Shown: positions 2,053-2,139 of the stretch, piece by piece
How positions within the stretch are numbered: the stretch's first letter is position 1
How the letters are laid out: every line of letters starts with the position of its first letter
Source of the DNA: a virus
Taxonomy: Duplodnaviria; Heunggongvirae; Uroviricota; Caudoviricetes
DNA length: 3,142 bases
Virus record (IMG/VR): IMGVR_UViG_2740892234_000015
Strand: one strand, 5' to 3'
The notes under the pieces: model-generated
The model's input: the letters and a program-made list of their open reading frames with translations, nothing else
What the model was told of the DNA's origin: nothing
Databases searched by the model: none
Program-made: the position numbers and the translations under genes

Positions 2053-2139
2053 TTATCCCCAGCGGAAAAGCGAATACAGAATAAATGCCACCGCTATTGC
2101 AACTCCAACTGCGGTGAATGCTTCAGGCCAATTCATCAT
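2053..2139 (-). CDS. Small hydrophobic single-pass membrane peptide, 27-28 aa (MMNWPEAFTAVGVAIAVAFILYSLFRWG); not in the supplied ORF track
   Basis: I translated this by hand: tandem ATG ATG at 2139-2134, TAA at 2055-2053. The first ATG overlaps the TGA stop of the DUF551 gene (ATGA at 2139-2136). A perfect AGGAGG at 2149-2144 lies 4 nt before the first ATG and 7 nt before the second. The peptide has a roughly 20-residue hydrophobic core (AFTAVGVAIAVAFILYSLF) flanked by Trp residues and a C-terminal Arg, the composition of a single transmembrane helix. Confidence 0.5.
   Translation of the reverse strand: MMNWPEAFTAVGVAIAVAFILYSLFRWG

Follow-up and report, generated by a model that had tools for sequence, protein, structure and literature searches.

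The prophage DNA analysed here raises the question of whether the 87 nucleotides that separate the gene of a DUF551-domain protein from that of a DUF4222 protein constitute a gene in their own right. The window, by which is meant the whole stretch of DNA that was analysed (3,142 nucleotides), can be read at this place as an open reading frame of 27 or 28 codons. The initial annotation had proposed that this micro-ORF is a real, overlooked gene, coupled to the preceding one and encoding a single transmembrane helix.

Gene organization of the window

The following features were identified, positions being those of the window.

75-1361, minus strand: integrase gene (int), from the open reading frame list and Pfam
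1395-1649, minus strand: DUF1233 excisionase gene (xis), from the open reading frame list and Pfam
1668-1802, minus strand: gene of 44 aa, hypothetical protein WP_000556584.1
1806-2048, minus strand: DUF4222 gene, 80 aa (Pfam PF13973, E=9e-16), annotated in the closest genome and in phage BP-4795
2049-2052, minus strand: spacer AGGA, 4 nt, from the micro-ORF stop to the DUF4222 ATG (2048)
2053-2139, minus strand: micro-ORF in its 28-aa form, from the open reading frame list
2136-2726, minus strand: DUF551-domain gene, 196 aa (Pfam PF04448, E=4.5e-20), annotated in the closest genome and in phage BP-4795
2766-2775: run of 10 N, the scaffold join
2776-3142: part of the window holding ypeC (DUF2502), a core chromosomal gene

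Every prophage gene of the window lies on the minus strand. DUF4222 is the next gene after the micro-ORF in a tightly packed leftward operon that continues with the 44-aa gene, xis and int. The spacing within this string of genes is 3-33 nt, and without the micro-ORF a gap of 87 nt would remain. The 44-aa gene starts 3 nt past the DUF4222 stop on a strong Shine-Dalgarno sequence (-10.8 kcal/mol) and is tightly coupled; its product had no match in Pfam or PADLOC.

The closest complete genome is that of E. coli 2013C-3264, which is 99.9% identical and carries the prophage arm integrated beside mlrA/yehV; the genes that come after DUF551 there are one of 192 nt and ea22. The identity of the prophage arm to phage BP-4795 is 94%. 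The gene beyond the run of N, ypeC, was found in 5425 of 5426 E. coli genomes. Since ypeC has no relation to the prophage, which lies at mlrA/yehV in the closest genome, the window joins two unrelated contig ends.

Start signals of the micro-ORF

Three elements define the start of the micro-ORF and its conserved extent.

2144-2149, minus strand: Shine-Dalgarno sequence AGGAGG, within the last DUF551 codons, 7 nt from the conserved ATG and 4 nt from the first ATG
2137-2139, minus strand: extra in-frame ATG that gives the 28-aa form, clade-specific and GTG in some relatives
2053-2136, minus strand: micro-protein gene in its conserved form of 27 codons, MNWPEAFTAVGVAIAVAFILYSLFRWG, plus the stop, with the ATG at 2136-2134 and the TAA at 2055-2053

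The AGGAGG at 2149-2144, the tandem ATG codons and the ATGA overlap with the preceding gene, all of which had been listed in the initial annotation, are present in the sequence. The DUF551 stop TGA (2138-2136) overlaps the first ATG (2139-2137) as ATGA. The DUF551 gene ends with two in-frame stops, TGA TGA (2133-2138, minus strand), the second of which (2135-2133) overlaps the second ATG (2136-2134). Translation of 2053-2139 gives a product of 28 aa, MMNWPEAFTAVGVAIAVAFILYSLFRWG, or one of 27 aa if it starts at the second ATG, 2136. A variant reading GGEVMNWPE has GTG at the position of the first ATG, and in other clades a single ATG aligns with the second ATG of the window; the conserved start is therefore 2136, with a product of 27 aa and a Shine-Dalgarno spacing of 7 nt. 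Both lengths given in the initial annotation thus occur, the shorter from the conserved start and the longer from a codon that is specific to one clade.

The ribosome-binding site had also been described as the strongest in the window. It does have the lowest duplex energy with the 3' end of 16S rRNA (-11.6 kcal/mol), by a small margin over int (-10.9) and the 44-aa gene (-10.8). It is the single AGGAGG of the window, and shuffled sequences contain a mean of 0.91. The window holds 57 open reading frames of at least 20 aa, and the sequence features of the micro-ORF alone are not beyond chance; the comparison with homologous loci decides. The 4-nt AGGA spacer suggests onward translational coupling to DUF4222.

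An 84-aa open reading frame on the plus strand (2795-3049), antisense to ypeC, is as hydrophobic as the micro-ORF and clearly spurious. It is a by-product of the repetitive coding for His, Arg, Asp and Trp on the opposite strand, so hydrophobicity alone is no indicator of a gene.

Conservation of the frame in homologous loci

A tblastn search of phage records, the comparison recommended in the initial annotation, identified relatives that are 48-70% identical in 933W, VT2-Sakai, ArgO145, PhiR49_2 and others. All have 27 codons, and in each the start overlaps the stop of the preceding gene as ATGA. When a degenerate DNA pattern was run against viral contigs, 127 copies were recovered, all of them stop-free and hydrophobic in the 18 codons that the pattern left free. 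A sample obtained by pattern is biased to intact copies, and two samples were therefore drawn by flanking gene only, one anchored on DUF4222 (80 loci) and the other on the unrelated upstream gene of ArgO145 (79 usable loci).

In the sample anchored on DUF4222, which includes a clade only about 40% identical, MSWPDAIVTLGVVFAAAFVVFSICRWG, 79 of the 80 loci have an intact 27-codon frame ending 4 nt before DUF4222, and the sole exception has one extra G in a run of G. The frame of 27 codons is kept in 72 of the 79 loci anchored on the ArgO145 upstream gene; one further locus has an in-frame insertion of 6 nt and another a stop-loss extension (74/79). In the remaining five the frame is lost through three events independent of one another: deletion of 1 nt, insertion of 1 nt and a nonsense change. 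A natural variant is known in which the W3 codon TGG reads TGA. In the two anchored samples together the frame is kept in 153 of 159 loci, counting two in-frame length variants and the one stop-loss extension. The six disrupted copies (about 4%) are sporadic and trace to four independent events: a single nonsense change and three indels of 1 nt, of which one is shared by three loci. Routine disruption of the frame in homologous prophages, which the initial annotation had held would speak against a gene, was thus not what these loci displayed.

The length of 27 codons and the positions of the start and stop are constant across clades whose identity is only 40-70%. Length variants are rare and leave the frame intact; one of them, longer by 12 nt, exists outside the anchored loci.

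Selection on the amino acid sequence

Synonymous and nonsynonymous changes, whose comparison had likewise been recommended, were counted by parsimony after 59 distinct sequences had been placed in a neighbour-joining tree. Of the codon changes on the tree, 84 are synonymous and 85 nonsynonymous, whereas a synonymous fraction of 0.25 would be expected (p=5e-12); the count ignores transition bias and recombination. When only codons not fixed by the search pattern were considered, there were 69 synonymous and 80 nonsynonymous changes (p=3.6e-7), with an omega of about 0.43. By codon position the changes number 43, 35 and 101, and no nonsense change falls on the tree. The substitution pattern indicates that the frame is under purifying selection, and the value of omega that the constraint is only moderate. 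The other forward frames are closed by stops in 48-51 of 51 sequences.

Among the residues not forced by the pattern, the best conserved are G11, A15, A17, Y21, S22, I23 and C24. The ratio of synonymous to nonsynonymous changes is 6:1 at G11, 4:1 at A15 and 5:1 at C24. The upstream gene, where it overlaps, also constrains the Shine-Dalgarno sequence and the first codons.

The possibility was considered that the segment is conserved as non-coding DNA, whether a recombination junction, an RNA element or the 3' untranslated region of the upstream gene, and is open by accident. Its position, at a junction of differing upstream and downstream modules, would suit such a role, as would the fact that gene callers almost never call the micro-ORF. 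However, neither the third-position bias and the synonymous excess nor the in-frame length variants and the conservation of start and stop across 40-70% identity are expected of it. The segment also has no Rfam match (E<=1) and no promoter-like or terminator-like site, and its RNA fold is no more stable than that of shuffled sequences (z-score +0.55). A non-coding element is extremely improbable on this evidence.

Genomic context

The genes upstream of the micro-ORF are mosaic genes of the Ea22/DUF551 type with three different 3' modules, all of which close with an ATGA junction and, before it, an SD-like GGAGG or GAAGG. In all three classes the ATG of the micro-ORF has the GGAGG or GAAGG 6-9 nt upstream. 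These genes share an N-terminal module, 'MTTFT.EQLI...IALASLEAEP', and their middle and C-terminal modules are swapped. The swapped part may be DUF551, a module reading 'KAKPDCKLPDKAMDYLKRNGLISVEDILR', or the L0139 module, which is of the coiled-coil/zinc type. L0139 itself is also preceded by the DUF551 3' end, complete with Shine-Dalgarno sequence and ATGA junction.

The downstream neighbours vary as well: DUF4222 may follow after 4 nt or mok/hok after about 150 nt, a ParDE pair may lie in convergent orientation, and there are several others. The identical peptide was found with three upstream and at least five downstream contexts, and the micro-ORF is therefore an autonomous module, neither a leader of DUF4222 nor an appendage specific to DUF551. 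The coupling to DUF551 described in the initial annotation holds insofar as the stop and start overlap; it is not peculiar to DUF551, as the same peptide stands behind all three upstream 3' modules.

In roughly a third of related loci the neighbour about 150 nt downstream is a mok/hok/sok type I toxin-antitoxin module (hokW in 933W), and in ArgO145 and ETEC4068 the micro-ORF faces a convergent ParDE/RelE pair. With such neighbours, the micro-ORF often marks the end of the early-left gene string beside an addiction module.

These arrangements bear on whether the micro-ORF is translated only to carry ribosomes from the upstream gene to DUF4222, its peptide being functionless. The ATGA overlap upstream and the 4-nt gap downstream, seen in the window and in the loci linked to DUF4222 (79/80), are what such a relay would look like. 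However, most of the other contexts have the next gene at a distance of 35-320 nt, in convergent orientation or under a promoter of its own (hok, ParDE). There is nothing to couple in such contexts, which contradicts a role as relay only. In addition, the amino acid sequence appears to be under purifying selection and its length is fixed at 27 codons, and this explanation is very improbable.

The upstream junctions also allowed the idea to be evaluated that programmed -1 frameshifting ahead of the stop provides the upstream DUF551/Ea22-like protein with the helix as its C-terminal membrane anchor. The micro-ORF frame is open for 13-17 codons upstream of the ATG, and the stop is closely preceded by an SD-like element, an arrangement known from the prfB shift site. 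However, the three classes (GAG GTG AAA TGA; GAT ATT TTA CGA TGA; GAG GTG AAT CGA TGA) have no slippery heptamer in common, and a canonical Shine-Dalgarno sequence with an ATG at ideal spacing is the simpler explanation. The database entries of 43-87 aa with an upstream extension are not products of frameshifting; they arise from another choice of start in the micro-ORF frame or from fusion by mutation. A fusion by programmed frameshifting is scarcely credible and was rejected for want of a shared slippery site.

Distribution

Among complete E. coli genomes, 1539 of 5426 (28%) were positive, with up to 7 copies each. The matched places include 127 on plasmids, and the size of the plasmid matches listed, 93-99 kb, suggests that the carriers are P1-like phage-plasmids. 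Shiga-toxin-converting phages that carry the micro-ORF are BP-4795, VT1-Sakai, 933W, VT2-Sakai and ArgO145. No copy is present in the Rac prophage of K-12.

A pattern scan of 185,579 species genomes, one per species, returned Escherichia/Shigella, two tiny contigs and one chance match in Streptomyces; the pattern was strict, and more divergent relatives could lie outside Escherichia/Shigella. The two contigs, assigned to Xanthomonas pisi (431 bp) and Acinetobacter idrijaensis (369 bp), hold E. coli-type copies, one of them identical to the 933W allele. Both are probably draft-assembly contamination.

Predicted structure and topology of the micro-protein

The family consensus is M-x-W-P-[ED]-A-[FLI]-x3-G-x-[AV]-x-A-x-A-x3-[YF]-S-I-C-R-W-G. 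The initial annotation had described the product as essentially one hydrophobic helix, and structure prediction agrees. AlphaFold returned a single helix from W3 to R25 with a pLDDT of 89, and the hydrophobicity of residues 6-24 is of membrane grade (Kyte-Doolittle mean 2.28, summed Hessa scale -0.86) and similar in nearly all variants. An acidic residue, E or D at position 5, precedes the helix and R25-W26 follow it, while stop-loss variants add C-terminal tails rich in K and R. By the positive-inside rule, the orientation is probably N-out/C-in.

The alternating G-x-A-x-A-x-A provides two small-xxx-small pairs, G11xxxA15 and A13xxxA17, suited to helix packing. Conservation alternates along this segment (G11, A13, A15, A17) and then spans the whole C-terminal end. 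The helical periodicity of amino acid variability was not significant (moment at 100 degrees, p=0.38), and no defined interaction face is therefore claimed.

Taken together, the flank-anchored conservation, the synonymous excess and the helix prediction support the initial proposal of an overlooked gene, coupled to its neighbour, for a single transmembrane helix. The stretch 2053-2136 (minus strand) is most likely a genuine gene encoding a 27-residue single-pass inner-membrane micro-protein of lambdoid prophages and P1-like phage-plasmids of Escherichia/Shigella. Judged from comparative sequence analysis, the probability of this reading is about 0.8.

Annotation status

The description of the micro-ORF as unannotated holds for RefSeq/PGAP and the phage records inspected, which leave its 87 nt without annotation, but not for GenBank, where a few exact copies are entered as 'hypothetical protein', among them ETI78407.1 (27 aa) and ASL58468.1 (28 aa). 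Similar proteins are rare in clustered databases. A 40-aa frame-extended query found only 6 similar clusters among 5.8 billion, most of them with a wrong, upstream-extended start, and a 30-aa query found 14 similar representatives among 1.84 billion, several with a spurious upstream extension.

Searches of the family libraries Pfam, NCBIfam, PHROGs and PADLOC gave nothing above threshold for the micro-protein, and the PDB sequences contained no match. At E<=1, PADLOC had no match for the peptide variants or for the DUF551, DUF4222 and 44-aa gene proteins. The best match to KdpF (TIGR02115), obtained with one variant only, scored 14.7 bits against a cut-off of 26.85, and the DUF883_C glycine zipper (PF19029) scored 13.2-14.0 bits (E=0.04-0.07) against a Pfam gathering threshold of 27. 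The micro-protein thus represents an uncurated family that standard annotation has overlooked.

A full-text literature search did not find the peptide string or a paper describing the micro-protein, and the peptide is not in the supplements of PMC5597208, PMC11188072 and PMC10903887. The RIBOseq study of EHEC Sakai screened only open reading frames of at least 30 aa (PMC5597208) and would have missed the micro-ORF because of this cut-off. The micro-ORF is not mentioned in a modelling survey of the exo-xis region (PMC8614690). SMP7, a phage-adjacent product described in a preprint on UPEC CFT073, was considered and is different, being encoded by a 192-nt sORF.

Proposed mode of action

After infection or induction, the micro-ORF would be transcribed as part of the leftward early (pL-type) operon. 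Ribosomes that end the upstream gene would re-initiate, or initiate afresh, on the strong Shine-Dalgarno sequence at the ATGA junction, and in the window they would probably continue to DUF4222, which starts 4 nt downstream. The peptide is expected to insert N-out/C-in in the manner of Pf3-coat-like proteins, with the acidic W-P-E head in the periplasm and the R-W tail in the cytoplasm. The likeliest mode of action, suggested tentatively from the conserved residues, is that the small-residue motifs and the invariant juxtamembrane Y-S-I-C-R-W pack against a host inner-membrane helix or against another copy of the peptide, the micro-protein acting as a non-essential accessory modulator of the membrane early in development.

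The main alternative to such packing is that the micro-protein is a membrane-active toxin, either type-I-toxin-like or an oligomer of the viroporin or holin kind, that would depolarise or permeabilise the inner membrane as do TisB, DinQ, ShoB and Hok. Its size, its lone hydrophobic helix and its small-xxx-small motifs do resemble those of type I toxins of 26-30 aa, and the mok/hok module lies nearby in the related loci described above. However, hok is one of many alternative downstream contexts, and no toxin family in Pfam, NCBIfam or PADLOC matches. No promoter-like site was found on either strand between 1600 and 2800, and no Rfam family, so that an antisense antitoxin is lacking. Furthermore, the Shine-Dalgarno sequence is strong and unstructured (fold z=+0.55) and the start is coupled to the upstream gene, the opposite of the tight translational repression of type I toxins. 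The location, early-left between DUF551 and DUF4222/xis/int, is also not that of a late lysis cassette. A toxin or holin is unlikely in view of these features.

A more specific version would be that the micro-protein founds a widespread family of phage regulators, unrecognised until now, whose target early in the development of lambdoid/Stx phages is a particular inner-membrane protein of the host. This version is doubtful; its candidate partners include a DNA-entry channel such as ManYZ/PtsG, the FtsH-HflKC protease or a transporter. Were it true, superinfection exclusion, the choice between lysis and lysogeny or the efficiency with which Stx prophages are induced would be affected by the binding. 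Very few phage products exemplify regulation of this kind, and the micro-protein would join them if it modulates a host membrane protein. Genes of the exo-xis/ea region influence lysogenisation and Stx-prophage induction.

Apart from its mode of action, the micro-ORF accounts for 87 nt of the exo-xis/ea region that look 'intergenic'. The gene is carried, often in several copies, by over a quarter of the complete genomes of E. coli, and yet it is invisible to RefSeq annotation and to curated family libraries. It is a well-supported further case of phage accessory regions hiding micro-protein genes under selection, and its product is a small, easily synthesised target for functional tests.

Comparison with known systems

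The type I toxins (Hok/Gef, TisB, DinQ, ShoB, Ibs and Ldr, of 19-50 aa, some of them prophage-borne) are, like the micro-protein, hydrophobic helical peptides. Unlike them, the micro-ORF lacks an antisense RNA or promoter, its ribosome-binding site is not sequestered, its strong Shine-Dalgarno sequence is coupled to the upstream gene, and it has no family match. The alternating small residues G-x-A-x-A-x-A within a membrane helix recall the DUF883_C anchor at the C-termini of ElaB, YqjD and YgaM, although the match is below threshold and the helix is the entire micro-protein. A short acidic N-tail, one hydrophobic helix and a basic and aromatic R-W anchor at the C-terminus are shared with the coat protein of Pf3, which is N-out/C-in and YidC-dependent. 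This likeness is topological only, being deduced from the distribution of charge; the two are not homologous and the micro-protein is not a virion protein.

In neighbourhood and strand, between the recombination genes and xis/int, the micro-ORF is comparable to the exo-xis or 'ea' genes of lambda and the Stx phages (ea22, ea8.5, orf60a, orf61 and orf63), which are non-essential early-left genes, and it directly follows modular genes of the Ea22/DUF551 type. The products of the exo-xis genes are soluble and structured, whereas the micro-protein consists of a membrane helix alone.

The small single-pass membrane proteins of E. coli that have been characterised work by packing against a larger membrane protein. 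The micro-protein differs from YohP (27 aa), KdpF (29 aa), MgtS (31 aa), CydX (37 aa) and AcrZ (49 aa) in its unrelated sequence, in being phage-borne and not part of the chromosomal core, and in its stop/start overlap within a phage early operon. However, it resembles them in size, in its one helix and short charged tail, and in that proteins of this kind are routinely overlooked by annotation.
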